From the NCBI RefSeq assembly GCF_051903065.1, contig NZ_CP178438.1: a stretch of 64,000 nucleotides of DNA; one strand, written 5' to 3'. The notes under the pieces were generated by a model, which saw only the letters and a list, made by a program, of their open reading frames with translations, was not told where the DNA came from and made no database searches. The translations under genes were made by a program, and so were the position numbers. How positions within the stretch are numbered: the first letter of the stretch is position 1; each line of letters opens with the position of its first letter. Shown here in pieces: positions 3,812-39,580 of the stretch. This DNA comes from Escherichia coli. GTDB taxonomy: Bacteria; Pseudomonadota; Gammaproteobacteria; Enterobacterales; Enterobacteriaceae.

Positions 3812-3826
3812 GGTAATGACTCCAAC

Positions 3827-4330
3827 TTATTGATAGTGTTTTATGTTCAGATAATGCCCGATGACTTTGTCATGCAGCTCCACCGATTTTGAGAACGACA
3901 GCGACTTCCGTCCCAGCCGTGCCAGGTGCTGCCTCAGATTCAGGTTATGCCGCTCAATTCGCTGCGTATATCGCTTGCTGATTACGTGCAGCTTTCCCTT
4001 CAGGCGGGATTCATACAGCGGCCAGCCATCCGTCATCCATATCACCACGTCAAAGGGTGACAGCAGGCTCATAAGACGCCCCAGCGTCGCCATAGTGCGT
4101 TCACCGAATACGTGCGCAACAACCGTCTTCCGGAGCCTGTCATACGCGTAAAACAGCCAGCGCTGGCGCGATTTAGCCCCGACATAGCCCCACTGTTCGT
4201 CCATTTCCGCGCAGACGATGACGTCACTGCCCGGCTGTATGCGCGAGGTTACCGACTGCGGCCTGAGTTTTTTAAGTGACGTAAAATCGTGTTGAGGCCA
4301 ACGCCCATAATGCGGGCTGTTGCCCGGCAT
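3827..4330 (-). CDS. insB: IS1 transposase InsB
   Basis: 167-aa [29 protein letters not shown]... Confidence 0.9.
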
Positions 4331-4524
4331 CCAACGCCATTCATGGCCATATCAATGATTTTCTGGTGCGTACCGGGTTGAGAAGCGGTGTAAGTGAACT
4401 GCAGTTGCCATGTTTTACGGCAGTGAGAGCAGAGATAGCGCTGATGTCCGGCGGTGCTTTTGCCGTTACGCACCACCCCGTCAGTAGCTGAACAGGAGGG
4501 ACAGCTGATAGAAACAGAAGCCAC
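4249..4524 (-). CDS. insA: IS1 InsA
   Basis: 91-aa [43 protein letters not shown]... Confidence 0.9.
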
Positions 4525-4646
4525 TGGAGCACCTCAAAAACACCATCATACACTAAATCAGTAAGTTGGCAGCATCACCCACTGCATAAATTAATGTGAT
4601 GCCGGGATGTTTTTTGTGTTTCCCGGCATCTTTATAGCGATATCAA

Positions 4647-26753: not shown

Positions 26754-27581
26754 ATGAATCCGTCTGATGCCATTGAGGCAATTGAAAAACCGCTCTCCTC
26801 CCTGCCTTACTCACTTTCCCGTCACATCCTGGAACATCTGCGCAAACTCACCAGCCACGAACCCGTGATTGGCATTATGGGGAAAAGCGGGGCCGGTAAA
26901 TCCTCACTCTGTAATGCACTGTTTCAGGGGGAGGTCACCCCGGTCAGTGATGTTCACGCCGGCACCCGGGAAGTGCAGCGCTTCCGTCTGAGTGGCCATG
27001 GTCACAGCATGGTTATCACTGACCTGCCCGGGGTGGGCGAGAGCCGTGACAGGGATGCAGAGTATGAAGCCCTGTACCGTAACATTCTGCCTGAACTTGA
27101 CCTGGTACTGTGGCTGATTAAAGCCGATGACCGTGCCTTGTCTGTGGATGAGTATTTCTGGCGACACATTCTGCACCGGGGACATCAGCAGGTGCTGTTT
27201 GTGGTGACGCAGGCCGATAAAACGGAGCCCTGCCATGAATGGGATATGGCCGGTATTCAGCCTTCTCCCGCACAGGCACAGAACATTCGCGAAAAAACGG
27301 AGGCGGTATTCCGTCTGTTCCGGCCCGTACATCCGGTTGTGGCCGTATCGGCTCGCACCGGCTGGGAACTGGATACGCTGGTCAGTGCGCTCATGACAGC
27401 GCTTCCCGACCATGCCGCCAGTCCCCTGATGACCCGCCTGCAGGACGAGCTGCGCACGGAATCTGTCCGCGCTCAGGCCCGTGAACAGTTTACCGGTGCG
27501 GTGGACCGGATATTTGACACGGCGGAGAGCGTCTGTATTGCCTCTGTTGCCCGCGCGGTATGGAACTGGATTTTCTTCTGA
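26754..27581 (+). CDS. YeeP/YkfA/YfjP-family GTPase
   Basis: P-loop GIMGKSGAGKSSL, DLPG switch motif, TQADK; likely start MNPSDAIEAIE at 26754. Confidence 0.8.
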   Translation: MNPSDAIEAIEKPLSSLPYSLSRHILEHLRKLTSHEPVIGIMGKSGAGKSSLCNALFQGEVTPVSDVHAGTREVQRFRLSGHGHSMVITDLPGVGESRDRDAEYEALYRNILPELDLVLWLIKADDRALSVDEYFWRHILHRGHQQVLFVVTQADKTEPCHEWDMAGIQPSPAQAQNIREKTEAVFRLFRPVHPVVAVSARTGWELDTLVSALMTALPDHAASPLMTRLQDELRTESVRAQAREQFTGAVDRIFDTAESVCIASVARAVWNWIFF

Positions 27582-27780
27582 ACCCGGTGGTGATGCACCA
27601 GACTCTTGTTACAGATTTTTAACTCCATGAAAACACAATGCAAACGCAGCCATACCCGGGTTGTCCCCTTGTGTTGTGTTTTCCAGATTAATAGAATGCA
27701 TCGATCGTTATAAACGATCGTTTGTGGTAAATGACCTCCTCCGTGGTTGTCATGAAAATGCGTCTCAGGAAGGTTAAATA

Positions 27781-30165
27781 ATGCACGAAAAGAACATCGC
27801 CCTGCTTTGTGATGAAGCCGACCGACTTTTGCAACTGAACATTAATCTGCTCCGGCAAATGGTTGATGAACCGGATGTGTTATCTGACAGTAAGAACGAA
27901 AACAGACTGCTTTTCGATAAACAGAAAGCACTGAAAAGAATTGAGGAGCTGGAGGGCGAACAAATCAAAACCGCCCGCAGGGAGATGGTGCTGGCTGTTG
28001 TCGGCACGATGAAAGCAGGTAAATCAACTACCATCAACGCCATTGTGGGGCAGGAAATTCTGCCTAACCGTAACCGCCCCATGACCTCTGTACCGACGCT
28101 CATCCGCCACGTTCCCGGAAAAACTGAGCCGGTCCTCCATCTGGAACATATTCAGCCCGTCCGCAATTTATTAAGCACACTGCAACAAAAACTCGACACC
28201 CCGGCAGGACAGCAAGTCGCACAGACCCTGCAGCAAACCGGGGATACCTGCGAACTGCTGGATATTCTGGCAAATGATGGCTGGCTCAAAAATGAATACC
28301 ACGGGGAGGAGGAAATCTTTACCGGACTGGCATCGTTAAACGATCTGGTTCGCCTTGCTGCGGCAATGGGGAGTGAGTTTCCTTTTGATGAATACGCAGA
28401 AGTGCAGAAACTGCCGGTGATCGACGTGGAATTCAGCCATCTGGTGGGGATGGATGCATGCCAGGGAACACTCACACTGCTGGATACCCCCGGCCCTAAT
28501 GAGGCCGGACAACCGCAGATGGAAGTGATGATGCGGGATCAACTGCAGAAAGCCTCTGCGGTGCTGGCGGTGATGGATTACACCCAGATGAACTCAAAAG
28601 CGGATGAAGACGTCCGTAAAGAGCTTAATGCCATTGCTGACGTATCAGCCGGCCGCCTGTTTGTGCTGGTCAATAAATTTGATGAGAAAGACCGCAATGG
28701 CGATGGGGCAGATGCCGTACGCCAGAAAGTTCCGGCAATGCTGAACAGTGATGTGCTGCCCGCCTCCCGCGTTTATCCAGGCTCATCACGTCAGGCGTAC
28801 CTGGCTAACCGTGCGCTTCATGAGTTACGGAAAAACGGAACCCTTCCTGTTGATGAAGCCTGGGTCGATGATTTTGTCAGGGAAGCCTTCGGTCGCATGA
28901 AAAAAGAATACGTCTGTAAAGACAGTGAAATGGCAACCGAAGGGGCGACAGACCTGTGGGAAGGTTCACTTATCGATCAACTGATAACGGAAGTCATACA
29001 GAGCTCCCATTCCAGAGCGGCGGCACTGGCGGTTGATTCTGCCGCCGCAAAACTGATGCAGAATGCGGAAAATGTCAGCGAATATCTGTCATTACGCCAT
29101 CAGGGGCTACAGCAAAGCATTCAGTCACTGCAGGCGCATATCTCCAGCCTGCTGGCGGATATCCGGGAAATCGCGGACTGTCAGGAGCAGGTGACCGCAG
29201 ATGTCAGAATGGCTATGGAGGAGATCGATACTAAAACCCGGGAATTACTGACGGGGGTCTGCACCTCACTGGAAGAGGAGCTGAATGACTATTTCAGAAG
29301 CGGTAAACGCAAAGAACAGCAAATGCTGGAGGAAGAAAATTCAGCGCAGCCCCGGGAGAGAAACGCATTCGCTTTCTTTCACGATATTTTCGGAACCGGA
29401 AATCAGCATGACAGGATGCGGGACTTTGATCCGGACAGCCCCGAAATAAAATTCAGTGATCGCAGGGAAGCCCTTGAACTGATGACGCAAATCGAATCGA
29501 CCGTGACCAGCCTGCACCGTGAGGCTGAAGCACAGTTCCGTCCTGAACTGGAAAAAATCGTCAGGGGTATTGAAACAGGTTTTCGTGGTACGGCCCTGTA
29601 CGCCACAGAAAATATTGCCGGACGCATCAATGCCCGTCTGGAGGATGAAGGTTTCACTGTAAAAATCAGTTTTCCGGCAGTCAGCCAGTTACAGACCCGG
29701 CTCGCAGTAAAAACAAATCTGAGCGCGCTTATGGAGGAAAGAACGGAGACCGTCACTCGTCGCTGTCGACAGGATGGTGTCTGGGGTACGCTTTGTCGAT
29801 GGGCAAACACCAGTGACTGGGGCTGGAAAGAGTACAGTGTGGATGTGAGCCGCAGCGTGATCAATATCAACAAGGTCAGAGAGGAAGTGATGTCACTGAC
29901 CCGGGCATATTTCGGGGAGCTGCAGGCATCCATTGAGCAGGATATTAACCAGCCCGTCCGCCAGGAAATCGATGCCTTTTTCTGCGCATTCAGGGAGAAA
30001 GTTGAACAACTGCGTAACACGCTGATTCAGAGCTCTGAAGATCGTAAACGCGATCAGCAGGCGCAGGAACGGCTTACCGGGCGACTTCAGGCATTAAATG
30101 AAAGGGTTCCTGAGCTCATTACTGACAGTAAGGCGCTGAGGGAAGAGCTGGAGACAATGCTGTGA
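27781..30165 (+). CDS. Dynamin-like GTPase, CrfC/YjdA paralog
   Basis: 794 aa; G1 motif VVGTMKAGKSTTINAIVG, LDTPGPNE, VLVNKFDEKD; long coiled-coil C-terminal half; RBS AGGAAGG upstream. Confidence 0.85.
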   Translation: MHEKNIALLCDEADRLLQLNINLLRQMVDEPDVLSDSKNENRLLFDKQKALKRIEELEGEQIKTARREMVLAVVGTMKAGKSTTINAIVGQEILPNRNRPMTSVPTLIRHVPGKTEPVLHLEHIQPVRNLLSTLQQKLDTPAGQQVAQTLQQTGDTCELLDILANDGWLKNEYHGEEEIFTGLASLNDLVRLAAAMGSEFPFDEYAEVQKLPVIDVEFSHLVGMDACQGTLTLLDTPGPNEAGQPQMEVMMRDQLQKASAVLAVMDYTQMNSKADEDVRKELNAIADVSAGRLFVLVNKFDEKDRNGDGADAVRQKVPAMLNSDVLPASRVYPGSSRQAYLANRALHELRKNGTLPVDEAWVDDFVREAFGRMKKEYVCKDSEMATEGATDLWEGSLIDQLITEVIQSSHSRAAALAVDSAAAKLMQNAENVSEYLSLRHQGLQQSIQSLQAHISSLLADIREIADCQEQVTADVRMAMEEIDTKTRELLTGVCTSLEEELNDYFRSGKRKEQQMLEEENSAQPRERNAFAFFHDIFGTGNQHDRMRDFDPDSPEIKFSDRREALELMTQIESTVTSLHREAEAQFRPELEKIVRGIETGFRGTALYATENIAGRINARLEDEGFTVKISFPAVSQLQTRLAVKTNLSALMEERTETVTRRCRQDGVWGTLCRWANTSDWGWKEYSVDVSRSVININKVREEVMSLTRAYFGELQASIEQDINQPVRQEIDAFFCAFREKVEQLRNTLIQSSEDRKRDQQAQERLTGRLQALNERVPELITDSKALREELETML

Positions 30166-31067
30166 CTTCACCATTTATTCAACAAATTGCTGATAACCGG
30201 GTATGTCAGGTACTCACCTGTCTTCCTGAAAAATTTGTGGTTGATTTCGCAAACGGAATCGATGTTGCACAGGAGCATATCCGCACGGCCGGAGAGCGCA
30301 CGTTCTTCCGGCGTTTAAAAGAGGGGATGACCGGCGAAGGCGCTGCACGGCAGAATGCCATCAATGCTTCGCTTGCACAGGGCGTTGAGGCGTCCCTGCG
30401 CTGGCTGACGGAGCTGACAACGTCACTTGCCACCACAAACTACGCGATTACCCGGGTAAACGACAGGGTCAGTTCACTGGTCAGTGATACTGCCAGGCTG
30501 GCGCATTATTCGGCTGACACGCGGGAGCAGTTACTCACCCTGGCCGATCAGGTTCACCAGAAACTGAATCATCTTGAAGAAAAACTCCACCGTGTTGACC
30601 AGGTTCAGCGGGCGCAGTTACATCTTGAGCAGATATTCTCATGGTGGAGCGCCGGGCGATATGCGTCATTTTCCCCTGCCGGACGTTGTTATGTGGCACT
30701 TGAAGAGCTTCGCTGGGGCGCGTTTGGTGATGTGATACGCCAGGGCGAAACAGGCCAGGTTAACCAGCTACTGGATATTCTCAGACATAAAGCATTAACG
30801 CAGATGGCACAGGAGAGTGGCGGTAGTGCAACCGTGCGTCTGAACACTCTGGACTGGCTTGGTGGTCAGGGCCGGGAGCAGGCAGATAACGAGTGGCATG
30901 ACGCGATTAACTGGCTGGGGGACTGGTGCAGTGAAGAGCAGCATCCGGTGATCTGGTCAACCACGCAGGCTGCAGAACACTTACCGGTTCGCATGCCTCG
31001 CCTCTGCTCTGCAGAACGCCTCTCTGAAAGTATGGTCGATGAAATATTTCAGAAGGGGGCAGCATGA
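30162..31067 (+). CDS. YjcZ-like protein (partner of the dynamin-like GTPase)
   Basis: GTG start overlapping upstream stop; N-terminus resembles K-12 YjcZ as recalled (LPEKFVVDFANGIDV.QEHIRTAGERTFFRRLK). Confidence 0.7.
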   Translation: MTSPFIQQIADNRVCQVLTCLPEKFVVDFANGIDVAQEHIRTAGERTFFRRLKEGMTGEGAARQNAINASLAQGVEASLRWLTELTTSLATTNYAITRVNDRVSSLVSDTARLAHYSADTREQLLTLADQVHQKLNHLEEKLHRVDQVQRAQLHLEQIFSWWSAGRYASFSPAGRCYVALEELRWGAFGDVIRQGETGQVNQLLDILRHKALTQMAQESGGSATVRLNTLDWLGGQGREQADNEWHDAINWLGDWCSEEQHPVIWSTTQAAEHLPVRMPRLCSAERLSESMVDEIFQKGAA

Positions 31068-32134
31068 GTACAGAAATGAAAACGGGGCTGGTGCTGTCCG
31101 GCGGCGGGGCGGTGGGCGCTTATCAGGCAGGTGTGGTTAAGGCACTGGCAGAGTGTGGCACACAGATCAGCATGGTTTCAGGGGCCAGCATTGGCGCATT
31201 CAATGGTGCCATTATCGCGGCCTCTCCCGATCTGTCAGAAGCAGCCGCACGCCTGGAGGCGCTCTGGAAGCATCTGGGGAATAATCAGGTGCTGTCGGTA
31301 AACCGATCGGTTTACTTTTCATTGCTGAAAAAAATGGTTCAGGCCATGAACCTCTGCCAGATCCCCGGACGTGCAGGAGCACTGCTTACGACACTTCTTC
31401 GCCATATATCGATAATCAACGGCTTCGACAATCCGATGGCTCAGCCGCTGTTGTCAGATGAGCCTCTGACAGCGCTGTTGGATCATTATCTTGATACTGA
31501 TGCTCTGGCAGACGGGCTACCGCTGTATGTGTCGCTGTACCCCACAGAAGGGGGCATGCAGGATATTATTGACTGCATTCGTGCTGAACTGGGTGCCGGA
31601 ACCACGAAAAACGCCGTTTTTCAGCATATCCAGAGCCTGCCCCGCGGACAGCAGAAAGAGGCTCTGCTTGCGTCAGCCGCGCTGCCCCTGCTGTTCCGTC
31701 CCCGTGAGGTTCAGGGGACAATGTTCGGTGATGGTGGTATGGGAGGATGGCGAAATATGCAGGGAAATACCCCTGTGACGCCTCTGGTCGATGCCGGATG
31801 CAATATGGTGATTGTGACGCATCTGAGTGACGGTTCTTTATGGGATCGCCAGGCTTTTCCGGACACCACAATCCTTGAGATCCGTCCCCGGAAAAGGCTG
31901 AAATATGCAGGTGATGGTGGCAACAGCGGCGGTCTGCTCAGTTTCACGTTGGCACATACCGACGCCTGGCGTCAGCAGGGCTATGAAGACACGATGCTGA
32001 CGATGGAGCATATCCGGAAACCGCTGGCAGCACGTCAGGTACTGTCCCGGTCAGAAACGGTGTTGCAGAAAAGTCTGGAGATAACGGAAGAGGCAGATTT
32101 GGCACTGAGAAACGCGATGGCCCGGATTAAATAA
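31064..32134 (+). CDS. Patatin-like phospholipase
   Basis: ATGA start/stop overlap with upstream gene; Gly-rich loop LSGGGAVGAYQAG, nucleophile elbow GASIG (GxSxG), DGG motif in FGDGGMGG. Confidence 0.85.
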   Translation: MSTEMKTGLVLSGGGAVGAYQAGVVKALAECGTQISMVSGASIGAFNGAIIAASPDLSEAAARLEALWKHLGNNQVLSVNRSVYFSLLKKMVQAMNLCQIPGRAGALLTTLLRHISIINGFDNPMAQPLLSDEPLTALLDHYLDTDALADGLPLYVSLYPTEGGMQDIIDCIRAELGAGTTKNAVFQHIQSLPRGQQKEALLASAALPLLFRPREVQGTMFGDGGMGGWRNMQGNTPVTPLVDAGCNMVIVTHLSDGSLWDRQAFPDTTILEIRPRKRLKYAGDGGNSGGLLSFTLAHTDAWRQQGYEDTMLTMEHIRKPLAARQVLSRSETVLQKSLEITEEADLALRNAMARIK

Positions 32135-32464
32135 AGACGCCCCAAAGAAACGCCACCGCCTGTGGTGGTGTTTTTCCTGTCTGGTGTTATTGAAAATATT
32201 TTCAGACATATATTACCTGAGAGAAAGTTTTACCCCTCATCTGTCAATTCACTCACTGGAAATTTAATTATGAAATTACCTGTAAAGTTATTAATGAGCC
32301 TTATATCTCTGGTAAGCGTTATTGCACGTGCCGGGGAATATAAAAATTACAGCCGGGATGAAATAAAATACTGGCGATATACATCATACAAGGGGTGGAA
32401 ACTTCCGGAAGGTTTCACTGATGAGAAATTTTCCAGCGCCATTTACAACGGAAGAATATTTACA

Positions 32465-32953
32465 ATGAAACGTTTACATACCCTTATGTTATTTCTGGCG
32501 GTTCTGTTCACGGGCTTTAACTTTAACGCAGAAGCGGCTACCGTAAAACAAGCTCTTAGTTGTAACCCAGAAGCCTGGGCTGAACAACCTGGAGCGTGTC
32601 CATCAACGTACGAGTTGTACGAAGGTGACGCTACCTACAAAGCCGCTATCGACAAAGCATTAAAACCGGTCGGACTGAGCGGCATGTTCGGTAAAGGCGG
32701 CTATATGGATGGCCCTGGTGGAGGTATCACGCCAGTAAACATTAACGGTACAGTCTGGTTCCAGGGCGACGGTTGCAAAGCCAATACCTGCGGCTGGGAC
32801 TTTATCGTAACACTCTATAACCCAAAAACCCATGAAGTTGTTGGCTACCGTTACTTTGGTTTAGATGACCCGGCCTACCTGGTTTGGTTCGGTGAAATTG
32901 GCGTGCATGAATTCGCGTATCTGGTGAAAAACTACGTAGCTGCGGTTAACTAA
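32465..32953 (+). CDS. Secreted protein, possibly Ivy-like (lysozyme-inhibitor fold); alternative upstream in-frame start at 32270
   Basis: Signal peptide MKRLHTLMLFLAVLFTGFNFNAEA; GDGCKANTCGWDF loop resembling the Ivy CKPHDCG loop; second signal-peptide-like segment in frame upstream. Confidence 0.4.
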   Translation: MKRLHTLMLFLAVLFTGFNFNAEAATVKQALSCNPEAWAEQPGACPSTYELYEGDATYKAAIDKALKPVGLSGMFGKGGYMDGPGGGITPVNINGTVWFQGDGCKANTCGWDFIVTLYNPKTHEVVGYRYFGLDDPAYLVWFGEIGVHEFAYLVKNYVAAVN

Positions 32954-32968
32954 TTTAAGGAGTCTATC

Positions 32969-33181
32969 ATGAAAACTTTTATCAAAACTTTACTCGTTGC
33001 TGTAACTATTCTGTTCTCTGTCTTCGCTACTGCGAAACAAGTAAAACTGCCAAATAACATCAAATACGTTAATACTACAGAAGCGTTTTCCTGTACCGAA
33101 ATTGACGGTATGAATTGCCAGACAAAGAATCAGTTCAACTATAAAGATAACAGCTATGTGGTGATGCTGCCAACTTACTGA
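32969..33181 (+). pseudogene. Small secreted-protein gene truncated by IS1 (last 6 codons and stop lie in the IS1 terminal repeat)
   Basis: Signal peptide MKTFIKTLLVAVTILFSVFATA; frame runs into GGTGATGCTGCCAACTTACTGA of IS1. Confidence 0.5.
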
Positions 33182-33214
33182 TTTAGTGTATGATGGTGTT
33201 TTTGAGGTGCTCCA

Positions 33215-33490
33215 GTGGCTTCTGTTTCTATCAGCTGTCCCTCCTGTTCAGCTACTGAAGGCGTGGTGCGTAACGGTAAAAGCACTGCCGGACATCAGCG
33301 CTATCTCTGCTCTCACTGCCGTAAAACATGGCAACTGCAGTTCACTTACACCGCTTCTCAACCCGGTACGCACCAGAAAATCATTGATATGGCCATGAAT
33401 GGCGTTGGATGCCGGGCAACTGCCCGCATTATGGGCGTTGGCCTCAACACGGTTTTACGTCACTTAAAAAACTCAGGCCGCAGTCGGTAA
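33215..33490 (+). CDS. insA: IS1 InsA
   Basis: 91-aa [21 protein letters not shown]... Confidence 0.9.
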
Positions 33491-33912
33491 CCTCGCGCAT
33501 ACAGCTGGGCAGTGACGTCATCGTCTGCGCGGAAATGGACGAACAGTGGGGATACGTCGGGGCTAAATCGCGCCAGCGCTGGCTGTTTTACGCGTATGAC
33601 AGGCTCCGGAAGACGGTTGTTGCGCACGTATTCGGTGAACGCACTATGGCGACGCTGGGGCGTCTTATGAGCCTGCTGTCACCCTTTGACGTGGTGATAT
33701 GGATGACGGATGGCTGGCCGCTGTATGAATCCCGCCTGAAGGGAAAGCTGCACGTAATCAGCAAGCGATATACGCAGCGAATTGAGCGGCATAACCTGAA
33801 TCTGAGGCAGCACCTGGCACGGCTGGGACGGAAGTCGCTGTCGTTCTCAAAATCGGTGGAGCTGCATGACAAAGTCATCGGGCATTATCTGAACATAAAA
33901 CACTATCAATAA
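33409..33912 (+). CDS. insB: IS1 transposase InsB
   Basis: 167-aa [24 protein letters not shown]... Confidence 0.9.
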
Positions 33913-34216
33913 GTTGGAGTCATTACCCACTTTTTGAAAGCAACCAGATGATAGGGTAAAGATAAGTGCTGTGTTCGGCGGTAAATTCTCAGTACCACCC
34001 ATTGAAAATCGAACGGGGAAACGGGAAATTTGGAGCAAAGTGCTGGTATGCAAGGGATGTGTGGATCTCTGTGACGGGAAAACTACGGGGATATTGCGGG
34101 AAAGGGACGGGGGAAAGGTTCTATGTTGATGCTGATCAGATCTTTTCTAGTTTGCACTTGCTCATACCGTGAACAGCGTTAGTGTGGTGAGCATCATTTG
34201 CCAAAAGGGTTAGACA

Positions 34217-35440
34217 ATGAATGCCATACAGCAGCATGCTGCAGCGCTTCTGGATAGTGTTGCACGATGGAATGAAGTGACGACTCTGGCTAAATTACGC
34301 TATCAGGCCGAGCTGGCACCTGATTTCAGCCTCATGGACTGGCTGAAGAATGACGAACTGGCCCTTTCACGCTATCTACGATTTTTGCTTTCTCCTGATG
34401 AAACTCATGGTCAGTCATCACTGTTTCTAAAGGGATTTCTCTCCCTCATTGAAAAGAGTGGGCACGATAGCCCTATAACCACCGGAGGTAGCCATCATAA
34501 AGTCAGGGTTGATTATGAAGTCACTATTGAAAACAGAAGAAAGATAGACCTGTTGATGACATCTTCAGAGGGTTTTATTGCTATCGAAAATAAGCCATGG
34601 GCAGCAGATCAGGAAAATCAGTTACGGGATTATGCATTATGGCTGAACAAATGTGAAAGACCATGGAAGTTAATTTATTTATGCAATCAGGATCCGGGAG
34701 AGTGGACTCTTCCTGGCAATACTCCGGAAGCACTGAAGCAACATATCCTAACGATATCCTGGCATGAAGTCGTCAAATGGCTGAACGAATGTTTATTGCA
34801 TGTTCGGGCAGGTGCGGTCAAAATATTTGTTGAATCATTGATTAAATATATCAACCAGTCAATTAATGGTGAGTTCATAATGGATAATAGTCGTGAGTTG
34901 TCAGAAATCATCCGCAAGGATAGCTACTCTATAGAATCGGCATTTATGATTTTTAACCAGATGAATGAGGTTCGCAACGATTTATTCAAAGAGTTTATTT
35001 CTGATTTAAATGCCAGTTTCATTAATCATCCTTATTCTATTGAAACCTCGGATGGGGACCTATCGAAACGTGGGGCTAATTTTTATATCCCATTAAGCCC
35101 GGATGGTAATTACTCTTTGTGCTGGGAGTTTGAATATTCAGGTTATTATGGTTTATTTTTTGGCATTTCGGGAGTGAGTCTGGTTGAAGGTCAATCTGCA
35201 AAAATAGCTGCTGCCATGTCAGAGATATTTCCACACACGCAGGGTAAATCCAGCGAATACTGGTCATGGTGGAGCAGGGGTTTAGATCTGCAAGGGAAAA
35301 ATCGCATTCCTAGAGACTGGGGTAATGATGGAGCGGTTTGGGCGAAGCTCCGTGAGCGTGATGCAGACAGCATTTTTGCAGCCACCCGTGAAGCGATTCT
35401 GGCCGTTCATGAAAAGCTGGATATGGACTTATTGCGTTAA
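34217..35440 (+). CDS. Hypothetical protein with PD-(D/E)xK nuclease-like motif
   Basis: 407 aa; KIDLLMTSSEGFIAIENKPW fits the D-x(n)-E-x-K restriction-endonuclease-fold pattern around residues 110-126; no other recognisable domain. Confidence 0.5.
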   Translation: MNAIQQHAAALLDSVARWNEVTTLAKLRYQAELAPDFSLMDWLKNDELALSRYLRFLLSPDETHGQSSLFLKGFLSLIEKSGHDSPITTGGSHHKVRVDYEVTIENRRKIDLLMTSSEGFIAIENKPWAADQENQLRDYALWLNKCERPWKLIYLCNQDPGEWTLPGNTPEALKQHILTISWHEVVKWLNECLLHVRAGAVKIFVESLIKYINQSINGEFIMDNSRELSEIIRKDSYSIESAFMIFNQMNEVRNDLFKEFISDLNASFINHPYSIETSDGDLSKRGANFYIPLSPDGNYSLCWEFEYSGYYGLFFGISGVSLVEGQSAKIAAAMSEIFPHTQGKSSEYWSWWSRGLDLQGKNRIPRDWGNDGAVWAKLRERDADSIFAATREAILAVHEKLDMDLLR

Positions 35441-35484
35441 TTATTTGATCGTTTTCAGAAAATGCCTGAAGTGAGAGAGGGGAC

Positions 35485-36021
35485 ATGGATAATATCGAAG
35501 ACAGCGTTCCGCTTGGTATACAGCAGTTGATTGATGCTGAGAACGACGGGAAGATTTGGCTAAACAGTATTCCGGTCGTGAACGAGCTGTTGGATGATTT
35601 GCAGCGCGTGGCGTGGCATGTGCGAATTCAACAGGCAAAACATGAGATAACGGCGCACAAAAGCGCGTATTTGGTGAATGCCAAAATCAGCGAACTGGTG
35701 CAGATCTTCGAGGGGCGGAATCCGGCTTATGCTGTCCTGCCGTGGAATACCGATCCCCACCAGATGAAAGCATATATTACGAAACAGGACGACTACTGGG
35801 GAGACGATGCCGACGTTACCCATGATGATGCCTTGCCGCGATTACTCGATTGCTGTGCCGCTGCGGCAACTTTTGGCGTTGAGTCGCTATTGCCAGACTG
35901 CCCTGAGATATTCCGCAGTAGCAAAGAACAAGTTCTCGCTGACCTGTCTGAGCAGCGCTATCTGGCTGGCGCATTACTGATGGGGGTGCCAGTAGATATA
36001 TTTATCCAGATGGTGGGCTAA
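35485..36021 (+). CDS. Hypothetical protein (178 aa), 45 bp downstream of the PD-(D/E)xK gene
   Basis: ORF with GAGAGAGG RBS-like sequence upstream; no recognised motif. Confidence 0.45.
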   Translation: MDNIEDSVPLGIQQLIDAENDGKIWLNSIPVVNELLDDLQRVAWHVRIQQAKHEITAHKSAYLVNAKISELVQIFEGRNPAYAVLPWNTDPHQMKAYITKQDDYWGDDADVTHDDALPRLLDCCAAAATFGVESLLPDCPEIFRSSKEQVLADLSEQRYLAGALLMGVPVDIFIQMVG

Positions 36022-36454
36022 ATAAACCCTAAGACCGCTACACTTTTGCCAATCCAAGTTTACTTCCGGTTTCCATGAAGTGGTGAACCTTTTTCAACAG
36101 CAGCACATTGAACGACATTGGTGATTGCGAGTTATCGTGTCATGAAAAGCTTGCCATAGTCTGCTCAGTAATTGAATAACTGTAATCCTGTGGCTTTTGG
36201 CTATATCAGTTGGAGTAAGCTGGTTGAAGGAGCGCTCATAACCGATTTTATTGAGAACCGTGAACAAGGCCGGGAATCCTTTCCGGGATTGTGAGGGGTT
36301 GAGCAAGCCTACGGGCGCGGTAGTGTTTTTTACACCAGCCCGGAACAGTTTGGAAACCAGAGCTTCGTTTAGGGTTGTGTCTATTGTTGGTGGGTAAGAT
36401 CATTTTTTGTGTTTAGTCAGCCAGCATCATATGAATTTAACCGAGTGAGCAGCA

Positions 36455-37300
36455 ATGGGGATTTTCAATAGAATCAAAAAGGCTCTTGGTTTGGAAGTGC
36501 GAAAGGGGTTTCGACGCTGGTCCACTTCTGAGCTTGAAGAGAAGAAGGCTTATCTAGAAAACAAGTCCGCAGAAGAGTTCACTGCAAAAGATCACCATCT
36601 GTCGGCAGAATGGGTCATTCAACGTTATTTACCAGTAGGTGAAGAGCCTACACCCGAACAATGGTCAGAGGTCTCTGGTGACATTCAGCAGAAAATTGAC
36701 ATCAATTTAAATAAGGCTGCTGCGGGTGAACTCCTTAAAACTGAGTATATGCAACCCGCTCGCTATACCCTCACCAAGGACGACTTCCTAAGTGATATAG
36801 TGCCCGCTTTCTCAAGGTTTGATTGGCTACCAAATCCTCATTCAAAGGATTGGCAAGGCCGCGAAATCTGGGAATCGCTCTATGAATTTACTCAGCCGTA
36901 TTCTTTTAAGCATGGTGAAGCAAAAGATGCTCTGATGAGTATCTGTGACACCTACCAGGCTATGCACCTAGTAATGGATCTAGCGCGGACATACTCTCAA
37001 ATTTGCCAAGCGCAGCTTGATGGCTCGACGAGGATTAAGGTGGTTTGTTCTGGCAAGCATTGTGATGACTGCATGACTCTTGTTGGCACGAAACTGGGCG
37101 TTGATGAACTGCTAGCTACATTTAAGAATGGAGTTCCAAAATTTCCTCATCCTTTGCATTATGAAGATGAAGTTCGTTGGTGCCCGGCACCATTTCTATC
37201 GCCGGAGAGCCCACTTAAGGATGACGATGATCCAGAGTTTCATGCCTTTTTAGTTGATCTGTTTGATGGACCAGAGAAGCACAAAGACAAATCAAATTGA
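36455..37300 (+). CDS. Hypothetical protein (281 aa) with Cys cluster CSGKHCDDC
   Basis: ORF with acidic C-terminus; possible metal-binding Cys cluster; no recognised family. Confidence 0.45.
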   Translation: MGIFNRIKKALGLEVRKGFRRWSTSELEEKKAYLENKSAEEFTAKDHHLSAEWVIQRYLPVGEEPTPEQWSEVSGDIQQKIDINLNKAAAGELLKTEYMQPARYTLTKDDFLSDIVPAFSRFDWLPNPHSKDWQGREIWESLYEFTQPYSFKHGEAKDALMSICDTYQAMHLVMDLARTYSQICQAQLDGSTRIKVVCSGKHCDDCMTLVGTKLGVDELLATFKNGVPKFPHPLHYEDEVRWCPAPFLSPESPLKDDDDPEFHAFLVDLFDGPEKHKDKSN

Positions 37301-37389
37301 AATCTACGTCAGGAATAGAGCCAATAGAAATGTTGAAGGGGAGGCCAGATCAAATGCAATTATGCCCTTATCTGGGTAGTGACTCCAAC

Positions 37390-37893
37390 TTATTGATAGT
37401 GTTTTATGTTCAGATAATGCCCGATGACTTTGTCATGCAGCTCCACCGATTTTGAGAACGACAGCGACTTCCGTCCCAGCCGTGCCAGGTGCTGCCTCAG
37501 ATTCAGGTTATGCCGCTCAATTCGCTGCGTATATCGCTTGCTGATTACGTGCAGCTTTCCCTTCAGGCGGGATTCATACAGCGGCCAGCCATCCGTCATC
37601 CATATCACCACGTCAAAGGGTGACAGCAGGCTCATAAGACGCCCCAGCGTCGCCATAGTGCGTTCACCGAATACGTGCGCAACAACCGTCTTCCGGAGCC
37701 TGTCATACGCGTAAAACAGCCAGCGCTGGCGCGATTTAGCCCCGACATAGCCCCACTGTTCGTCCATTTCCGCGCAGACGATGACGTCACTGCCCGGCTG
37801 TATGCGCGAGGTTACCGACTGCGGCCTGAGTTTTTTAAGTGACGTAAAATCGTGTTGAGGCCAACGCCCATAATGCGGGCTGTTGCCCGGCAT
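37390..37893 (-). CDS. insB: IS1 transposase InsB
   Basis: 167-aa ORF identical to copy A InsB. Confidence 0.9.
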
Positions 37894-38087
37894 CCAACGC
37901 CATTCATGGCCATATCAATGATTTTCTGGTGCGTACCGGGTTGAGAAGCGGTGTAAGTGAACTGCAGTTGCCATGTTTTACGGCAGTGAGAGCAGAGATA
38001 GCGCTGATGTCCGGCAGTGCTTTTACCGTTACGCACCACGCCTTCAGTAGCTGAACAGGAGGGACAGCTGATAGAAACAGAAGCCAC
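37812..38087 (-). CDS. insA: IS1 InsA
   Basis: 91-aa [21 protein letters not shown]...NTILRHLK. Confidence 0.9.
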
Positions 38088-38257
38088 TGGAGCACCTCAA
38101 AAACACCATCATACACTAAATCAGTAAGTTGGCACCATTACCAGAAATAGTGACCAATAACTATTTATGTAAATTACATTAAAAACAAAAAAAATACTGC
38201 GCTCTTTATTTTTTACTTATTATCTGATAAAGTATCCCTCGTAGATTTATATAGGGG

Positions 38258-39580
38258 ATGATTATGCGCAAGTATTATTATTTTTTTATATATTCCGTAA
38301 TATCTTTTAATTCCATAGCAGCAGATCCACAAGTGAAACAAGATGATGGGGTGGGTAGTGATTCTTTTTTTATTACAAGTTCTTCTAACACACCAACCAA
38401 GAAAGAAAATGTACAGGGGACTAATTCTGTTGCTATTGGCAATAATGTTCAGATTAAGAAGGGAGATGGTTCAGATCTCAAAAATATGAGTGACGGTTCA
38501 GTAGCTATTGGAAATGGTGCCTCAACTATGTATGAAGGAACTACTGCTGTGGGTAAAGGGGCAAAAGCAACTGGCTGGCGCTCAACAGCAATTGGAGTGG
38601 GTGCGACCACAAATGCTGAATCAGCTACAGCCATGGGTAATGGTGCAAATGCCAATAACTGGGGGGCTAGCGCATACGGGACTATCGCAAAAGCAACGGG
38701 TACAAACTCAACAGCAATAGGTAATGCAGCTCAAAGTTCAGGAGAACTTTCTACAGCATTAGGTGTTTCATCACAAAGTACTGGGCATTATTCAGCAGCG
38801 CTAGGTACTTTATCTAAGGCTGAAGGATATGGTTCTGTTGCTACCGGCCTTCATGCTAATGCAAAATCTCAATATGGTATTGCACTCGGTTCATATTCAG
38901 TCGCTGATCGTGCCGCACTTGATGATACAATGTTGGGAGCTATTTCTGTAGGCGGTACAGCTAATGACACTCTAGGGTACAGGACACGTCAAATTATTAA
39001 CCTTGCAGCAGGGACAGAAGATAATGATGCCGTGAATGTATCACAACTTAAGAAAGAGGCAGGAGAAAGAGTTGCGGGCGATGCAGCTACCTTAACAGCA
39101 GCTAAGAATTACAGCGATGCTGGTAATAAACAAACGCTGAAAACAGCTAATGAATATAGCGACGCTGGCGATGCGAAAACATTACAGACAGCAAAGAATT
39201 ATAGTGACACCGGAGACGAGAGAACACTGAACAGTGCTAATAATTATACCAATACTGCCGTTAAGAAAAGCAATGCCAATACGCTTTATCAGGCAAATCA
39301 GTATACTAATCAGAAGTTCTCTGAATTGCGTAAAGTAGTTGATGAAAATCGTAAACGTTCGGATGCCGGCATTGCCGGAGCTATGGCTATGACGGCGATT
39401 GCACCTGTCCCCTATAAAGATTATTCATTCGGTATGGCTGCAGGTGGCTATCGCGATCAAGGTGCAATTGCGGCAGGGATTAATATCAAAACAAGTGAAA
39501 GCTCGTTAATGAAAGTAAATGCATCTTGGGACAGCCAGAATGGTGGTGGTATTGCGGCTGGTTTTAATGTCGGATGGTAA
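38258..39580 (+). CDS. YadA-like trimeric autotransporter adhesin
   Basis: Signal peptide; head repeats (NSVAIGNN, SVAIGNGA, STAIGVGA, STAIGNAA); neck-like NAVNVSQLK; stalk repeats AKNYSDAG/ANEYSDAG; C-terminal anchor ending GFNVGW. Confidence 0.8.
   Translation: MIMRKYYYFFIYSVISFNSIAADPQVKQDDGVGSDSFFITSSSNTPTKKENVQGTNSVAIGNNVQIKKGDGSDLKNMSDGSVAIGNGASTMYEGTTAVGKGAKATGWRSTAIGVGATTNAESATAMGNGANANNWGASAYGTIAKATGTNSTAIGNAAQSSGELSTALGVSSQSTGHYSAALGTLSKAEGYGSVATGLHANAKSQYGIALGSYSVADRAALDDTMLGAISVGGTANDTLGYRTRQIINLAAGTEDNDAVNVSQLKKEAGERVAGDAATLTAAKNYSDAGNKQTLKTANEYSDAGDAKTLQTAKNYSDTGDERTLNSANNYTNTAVKKSNANTLYQANQYTNQKFSELRKVVDENRKRSDAGIAGAMAMTAIAPVPYKDYSFGMAAGGYRDQGAIAAGINIKTSESSLMKVNASWDSQNGGGIAAGFNVGW

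Follow-up and report, generated by a model that had tools for sequence, protein, structure and literature searches.

Background

Classical IS1 adjacent deletions and inter-IS recombination events leave an IS1 end at the broken gene, carry no 9-bp duplication and remove the distal DNA; in classical IS1 truncations, the stop of the broken open reading frame (ORF) lies inside the terminal inverted repeat. A missing target-site duplication is conventionally attributed to recombination between IS copies or to adjacent deletion (PMC11708052). The same set of features is found at the locus reported here, in a 64-kb stretch of E. coli DNA (hereafter the window), where an ORF of 70 aa runs into a copy of IS1. 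This ORF is very probably the 5' remnant of a conserved 136-aa gene, cut by IS1-promoted adjacent deletion or by IS1-IS1 recombination.

The region is a leuX tRNA island. The gene is one that belongs to the CP4-44-type integrative islands and lies, in this case, in the leuX island. The window is collinear with the genome of E. coli GDSC2BY4G, at 99.8% identity over the island and about 98.2% over core genes; judged from these alignments, the window strain is related to, yet distinct from, GDSC2BY4G. In the PGAP annotation of GDSC2BY4G, the same ORF is already a pseudogene, 'missing C-terminus'.

The truncated reading frame

The ORF and its immediate surroundings contain the following features:

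32270-32953, + strand: hypothetical gene of 227 aa, upstream of the truncated gene and its conserved partner
32957-32962, + strand: Shine-Dalgarno sequence AAGGAG, 6-nt spacer before the ATG, read directly from the sequence
32969-33181, + strand: truncated fusion ORF, ATG start, 70 aa made up of 64 native residues and VMLPTY, then stop
32969-33034, + strand: predicted Sec signal peptide, residues 1-22, cleavage after A-T-A, from hydropathy and the AXA motif
32969-33159, + strand: native portion at the 5' end of the gene, 63 codons and 2 nt (191 nt), with 100% identity to the intact allele
33160-33181, + strand: end of the ORF contributed by IS1 (the last base of codon 64, then six codons and TGA), lying within the left terminal inverted repeat of the element

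The upstream 227-aa gene has its stop 15 nt before the ATG. Compared with the intact allele (L001:6410-6820), the window matches at 191/191 nt up to 33159 and diverges from 33160. Codon 64 is composed of the native GT and a G that is base 1 of IS1, and still encodes the native Val. The codons that follow (GTG ATG CTG CCA ACT TAC TGA, encoding VMLPTY and the stop) are wholly IS1; translation thus extends 22 nt into the terminal repeat, to the first in-frame TGA. The original prediction had described an ORF that reads through the IS1 end with the codon string GTG GTG ATG CTG CCA ACT TAC TGA, and this is correct at base level. Because all three frames entering the left end of IS1 terminate within 1-8 codons (after 1, 7 or 8), an IS-supplied stop is inevitable and unremarkable, and the VMLPTY tail is its predictable by-product.

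The original prediction had also called a signal peptide, which is plausible on sequence grounds. The n, h and c regions predicted from hydropathy and motif are present in the ORF, with Lys2 and Lys6, a hydrophobic core of 13 residues and the A-T-A motif. In the structural model of the intact protein, pLDDT is below 50 over residues 1-22, the putative signal peptide.

The intact gene and its family

The intact gene is 411 nt long and encodes the 136-aa 'hypothetical protein' WP_000846713.1; it is uninterrupted, for example, in O145 RM9872. The intact protein was found on at least 1000 contigs, and 2335 of 5426 complete E. coli genomes contain the native DNA that borders the IS on its left. Every full-length homolog at 63-85% identity has 136 aa. 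When 1.84 billion representatives were searched exhaustively, just three diverged full-length relatives were added. Two of these were retained; at 32-35% identity they are the most distant relatives, have 136-137 aa and align over their whole length. The remaining one, P0045 (152 aa, 43%), was dropped as low-complexity. One family member of 136 aa, P0064, is named 'Secreted protein' by one source. The intact family has no match in Pfam, NCBIfam, PADLOC or PDB sequences.

Comparison of homolog lengths supports the claim that the native 3' end has been replaced by IS1 sequence: the intact homolog has 136 aa, 72 native codons are gone, and among the full-length relatives (136-137 aa) none has the length of the truncated ORF and ends before the junction. 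Shorter database entries, of 57-64 aa, are labelled 'partial', and one of them equals exactly the 64 native residues. Draft contigs end within the gene at 57, 61, 62 and 64 codons, and the short entries fit draft contigs broken at the IS or fragments at contig ends.

The ORF in the window belongs to the WP_000846713.1 family by identity (191/191 nt) and by synteny, with common neighbours on all contigs. Its first 64 residues are identical to those of the family protein, and the two share the upstream dynamin, RdcB/YjcZ, patatin and 227-aa genes. The family's conserved cysteines are C42, C50, C74 and C100; the truncated ORF, at 70 aa, retains C42 and C50 and is neither full-length nor four-cysteine. 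The predicted fold of the intact protein is a seven-strand beta domain spanning residues 51 to 133, in a model of moderate confidence (mean pLDDT 76.8) built from just 8 sequences. According to this model, truncation after residue 64 leaves strand 1 and half of strand 2, about 1.5 of the seven strands, with about 5.5 lost.

In intact islands, the gene order is dynamin, RdcB/YjcZ, patatin, 227-aa gene, 136-aa gene, DUF932, antirestriction gene, yeeS and on. The upstream 4.2 kb of the window is 96% identical to L001, the sequence with the intact allele. Genes for a GTPase, a dynamin-family protein, an RdcB/YjcZ-family protein and a patatin-like phospholipase form an operon at 26754-32134, with only weak PADLOC matches (LeoBC, phospholipase effector); between this operon and the two small secreted-protein genes lies a terminator-like hairpin (32136-32170). 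The 227-aa protein encoded at 32270-32953 has no Pfam or NCBIfam match and contains two signal-peptide-like hydrophobic segments, at aa 3-21 and 68-85, the second just past Met66; the gene could have a wrongly assigned start codon or could represent two fused small secreted ORFs. Fragments of it in other strains are named 'DNA polymerase III subunit gamma/tau' by PGAP, which looks like a mis-annotation.

IS1 copy B and the missing 3' half

The element that ends the ORF is the second of three IS1 copies in the window and is referred to as copy B:

33160-33927, + strand: IS1 copy B, 768 bp, left arm of an IS1-bounded unit
33215-33490: insA (91 aa) of copy B
33409-33912: insB' frame (167 aa, overlapping) of copy B

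Exact matches to IRL (33160-33182) and IRR (33905-33927) delimit the copy, with zero expected by chance. Its length of 768 bp, its imperfect terminal inverted repeats of about 23 bp (GGTGATGCTGCCAACTTACTGAT ... ATCAATAAGTTGGAGTCATTACC) and the insA and insB' frames for the InsAB' frameshift transposase identify it as IS1. The PGAP label in GDSC2BY4G is 'IS1-like element IS1A family transposase, programmed frameshift'. The other two copies, A (3812-4579, − strand) and C (37375-38142, − strand), are 99% identical to it.

No 9-bp direct target-site duplication is present at copy B, which has CAGCTATGT on its left and CACTTTTTG on its right, and none of the flanks of copies A and C matches or complements these. 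The missing duplication leaves membership in IS1 intact; it shows that the present flanks were not made by simple insertion. The 3' half of the gene and the downstream intergenic DNA (L001:6601-6887) were not found in the 64-kb window. The DNA right of copy B is unrelated to the gene and consists, from 33928, of a PD-(D/E)XK cassette. The reciprocal junction would be expected to read from IRR into gene nt 183; a synthetic query for it gave no exact match in 5426 genomes. No RNA family match was found on either strand of 31000-39000.

The genes usually found downstream in the island recur only at 59674-63070, at 89% identity; in GDSC2BY4G, they are part of another CP4-type module, which has a GTPase gene of its own. 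This second CP4-44-type module (59674-63703 in the window) contains DUF932, antirestriction, JAB/YeeS, YeeT and YeeU/CbtA toxin-antitoxin genes, among others, and is about 89% identical to the module normally downstream of the truncated gene. The island therefore holds two partial, paralogous elements.

IS1 copy A also has no target duplication. It stands in place of about 1.6 kb kept in GDSC2BY4G (a frameshifted hypothetical gene beside argF), and its site is another IS1-associated deletion.

The IS1-bounded unit and its junctions

Copy B is the left arm of a unit with the following parts:

33160-38142, no strand assigned: IS1-bounded unit, 4,983 bp, with inverted IS1 arms B and C and outward-facing IRLs
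34217-35440: PDDEXK_4 protein, cargo (Pfam E=3e-22; PADLOC candidate defence family PDC-S26, E=7e-34)
35485-36021: 178-aa ORF, cargo
Between the 178-aa and 281-aa ORFs in the order listed: IS630 remnant, cargo
36455-37300: 281-aa ORF, cargo
37375-38142, − strand: IS1 copy C, right arm, its IRL abutting a YadA-like gene

The cargo occurs in 32 of the 5426 E. coli genomes, beside pheU, pheV or leuX island integrases. The inner junctions are identical in AW1.7, E308 and GDSC2BY4G, and the outer flanks are as follows:

AW1.7: yghT on the left, pheV integrase on the right
E308: pheU integrase on the left, YadA-like gene on the right
Window and GDSC2BY4G: truncated gene (nt 191) on the left, YadA-like gene on the right

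The junction between IRR and PDDEXK is present in at least 28 genomes, and that between IRL and the YadA-like gene is common to E308, FEX669 and COL60J, with a different inner neighbour and no cargo in FEX669. In MIN10, the YadA-like gene is present without IS1. The junction between the truncated gene and IRL was found in a single genome (GDSC2BY4G) among 5426 complete ones; it is lineage-specific, and the other three junctions of the unit are shared with other strains.

The left arm in E308 agrees with copy B at every substitution site, has one private 1-bp deletion at position 628 and abuts the pheU integrase, an outer flank unlike that in the window. The E308 pheU-island integrase CDS (L013 2613-3866) ends inside this same IS1 arm (AAT A/GG TGA). 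It enters the IS1 end in the frame that stops immediately, and is a second host gene with its last codon and stop supplied by IS1.

Exchange between the arms is also indicated. In COL60J, one IS1 alone separates the YadA-like gene from PDDEXK. The polymorphisms of this IS1 join the 5' part of arm C to the 3' end of arm B, which marks the arrangement as the inversion isomer of the cassette, with a later IS5-associated deletion. Five IS1 polymorphisms (positions 262-396) are carried by arm B in the window and by arm C in GDSC2BY4G (L006). These arm-swapped polymorphisms, together with the COL60J isomer, point to probable recombination or gene conversion between the inverted arms.

Inverted IS1 arms and a conserved cargo are features of a composite transposon, and the whole 4,983-bp unit might have been transposed into the gene, with the DNA on its right side replaced later. 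The occurrence of the unit with identical inner junctions in at least three chromosomal contexts, and its outward-facing IRLs, are as expected of such an element. However, no 9-bp duplication surrounds the whole unit in any of the three contexts examined. Moreover, the YadA-side junction is the older one, because E308 and FEX669 have it with a different left flank or without the cargo. Transposition of the whole unit is thus very unlikely as the origin of the junction.

It is even less probable that the junction is an artefact of assembly, in which contigs were wrongly joined across a 768-bp repeat. Such an error would be favoured by three 99%-identical copies in one window, and short-read assemblies always break at the junction of the gene with IS1. 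Nevertheless, the same linkage is seen in GDSC2BY4G, an independent complete genome that is collinear at 99.8% and is not the same strain. The exact 70-aa product is also encoded on about 17 public contigs, several of which, among those read, run into IS1 and one of which reaches insA; the 64-aa partial product is found on 6 NCBI draft contigs.

Fate of the truncated product

The gene probably still yields a precursor of 70 aa, with 48 residues left after processing. On the basis of the predicted fold, the 48-residue peptide would be unstable and non-functional. The opposite proposal, that it is a functional new variant, a secreted peptide kept under selection, may draw on the intact Shine-Dalgarno sequence, start codon and signal peptide, on 191 native nt without further mutation, and on an allele that circulates in several samples. 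This is very unlikely, however, since about 5.5 of the seven predicted strands and two conserved cysteines are lost, the allele is rare (1/5426 complete genomes versus at least 1000 contigs with the intact protein), and the absence of further decay is expected of a recent event.

Origin of the junction

Simple IS1 insertion, in which the gene is only split and its 3' half lies immediately right of copy B, does occur in this very gene (in CT30, with a 9-bp duplication) but is effectively refuted here by the absence of both the duplication and the 3' half from the window, the right flank from 33928 onward being the PD-(D/E)XK cassette. The original prediction, in which IS1 sequence replaces the native end of the gene, holds. 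It needs one refinement: the gene is not merely interrupted, with its remainder located beyond the IS.

Truncation by deletion or recombination at a resident IS1, the preferred explanation, can be envisaged as follows. Copy B was already resident as the left arm of the IS1-bounded PD-(D/E)XK cassette, and its outward-facing IRL became joined to gene nt 191. The likely route would be IS1-promoted adjacent deletion, that is, intramolecular transposition of the IRL of copy B. Equivalently, an IS1 may first have entered the gene by simple insertion and then undergone homologous recombination with the resident arm. By either route, the 3' half of the gene and the DNA beyond it would be lost and no target-site duplication would be left. 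Either mechanism may be the likely cause, as the data fit both. Copy B contains no donor-specific polymorphism, and a crossover in the first ~100 bp would leave none. The arrangement preceding the deletion was not found in any genome among those searched.

Recurrent IS1 breakpoints in the gene

The gene has a GC content of 41%, against 48.5% for the window, with values of about 23-43% in the first 190 nt. Among complete genomes, five independent IS1 junctions were found in it, between nt 79 and 191:

AR_0011: IRR before gene nt 79
CT30: simple IS1 insertion with a 9-bp duplication of gene nt 128-136
S1-INA-02-A: IRR before gene nt 178
MEI4BO-21: IRR before gene nt 189
Window and GDSC2BY4G: IRL after gene nt 191

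A more ambitious interpretation is that IS1 breakpoints recur in the gene, chiefly at nt 79-191, through selection against the secreted protein or for remodelling of the island, and not just through the preference of IS1 for AT-rich DNA; separately, the PDC-S26 cassette might serve in defence as a mobile module and reshape tRNA islands via one-ended IS1 deletions. This interpretation is considered unlikely.

Implications and comparison with known systems

The locus is an ordinary, textbook IS-truncated pseudogene and is already annotated as such in RefSeq. For annotation, the 70-aa ORF should be labelled a pseudogene fragment rather than a small secreted protein. The other half of an IS-truncated gene need not lie beyond the IS. 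The outer flanks of the cassette have been repeatedly remodelled, which bears on the reconstruction of island history and on counts of 'insertions'. Two side points are mildly interesting: the recurrent IS1 breakpoints in the gene, and the IS1-bounded PDC-S26 cassette with its variable outer flanks.

CT30 resembles the window in the gene affected, in the element (IS1), in its orientation and in the annotation as a pseudogene. The two differ in that the IS in CT30 is flanked by a 9-bp duplication (nt 128-136) and followed directly by the 3' half of the gene, whereas the window has neither. Compared with classical IS1 truncations, nothing essential differs in the window; the distinguishing feature is that the IS here is one arm of a conserved cassette whose outer flanks vary among strains.
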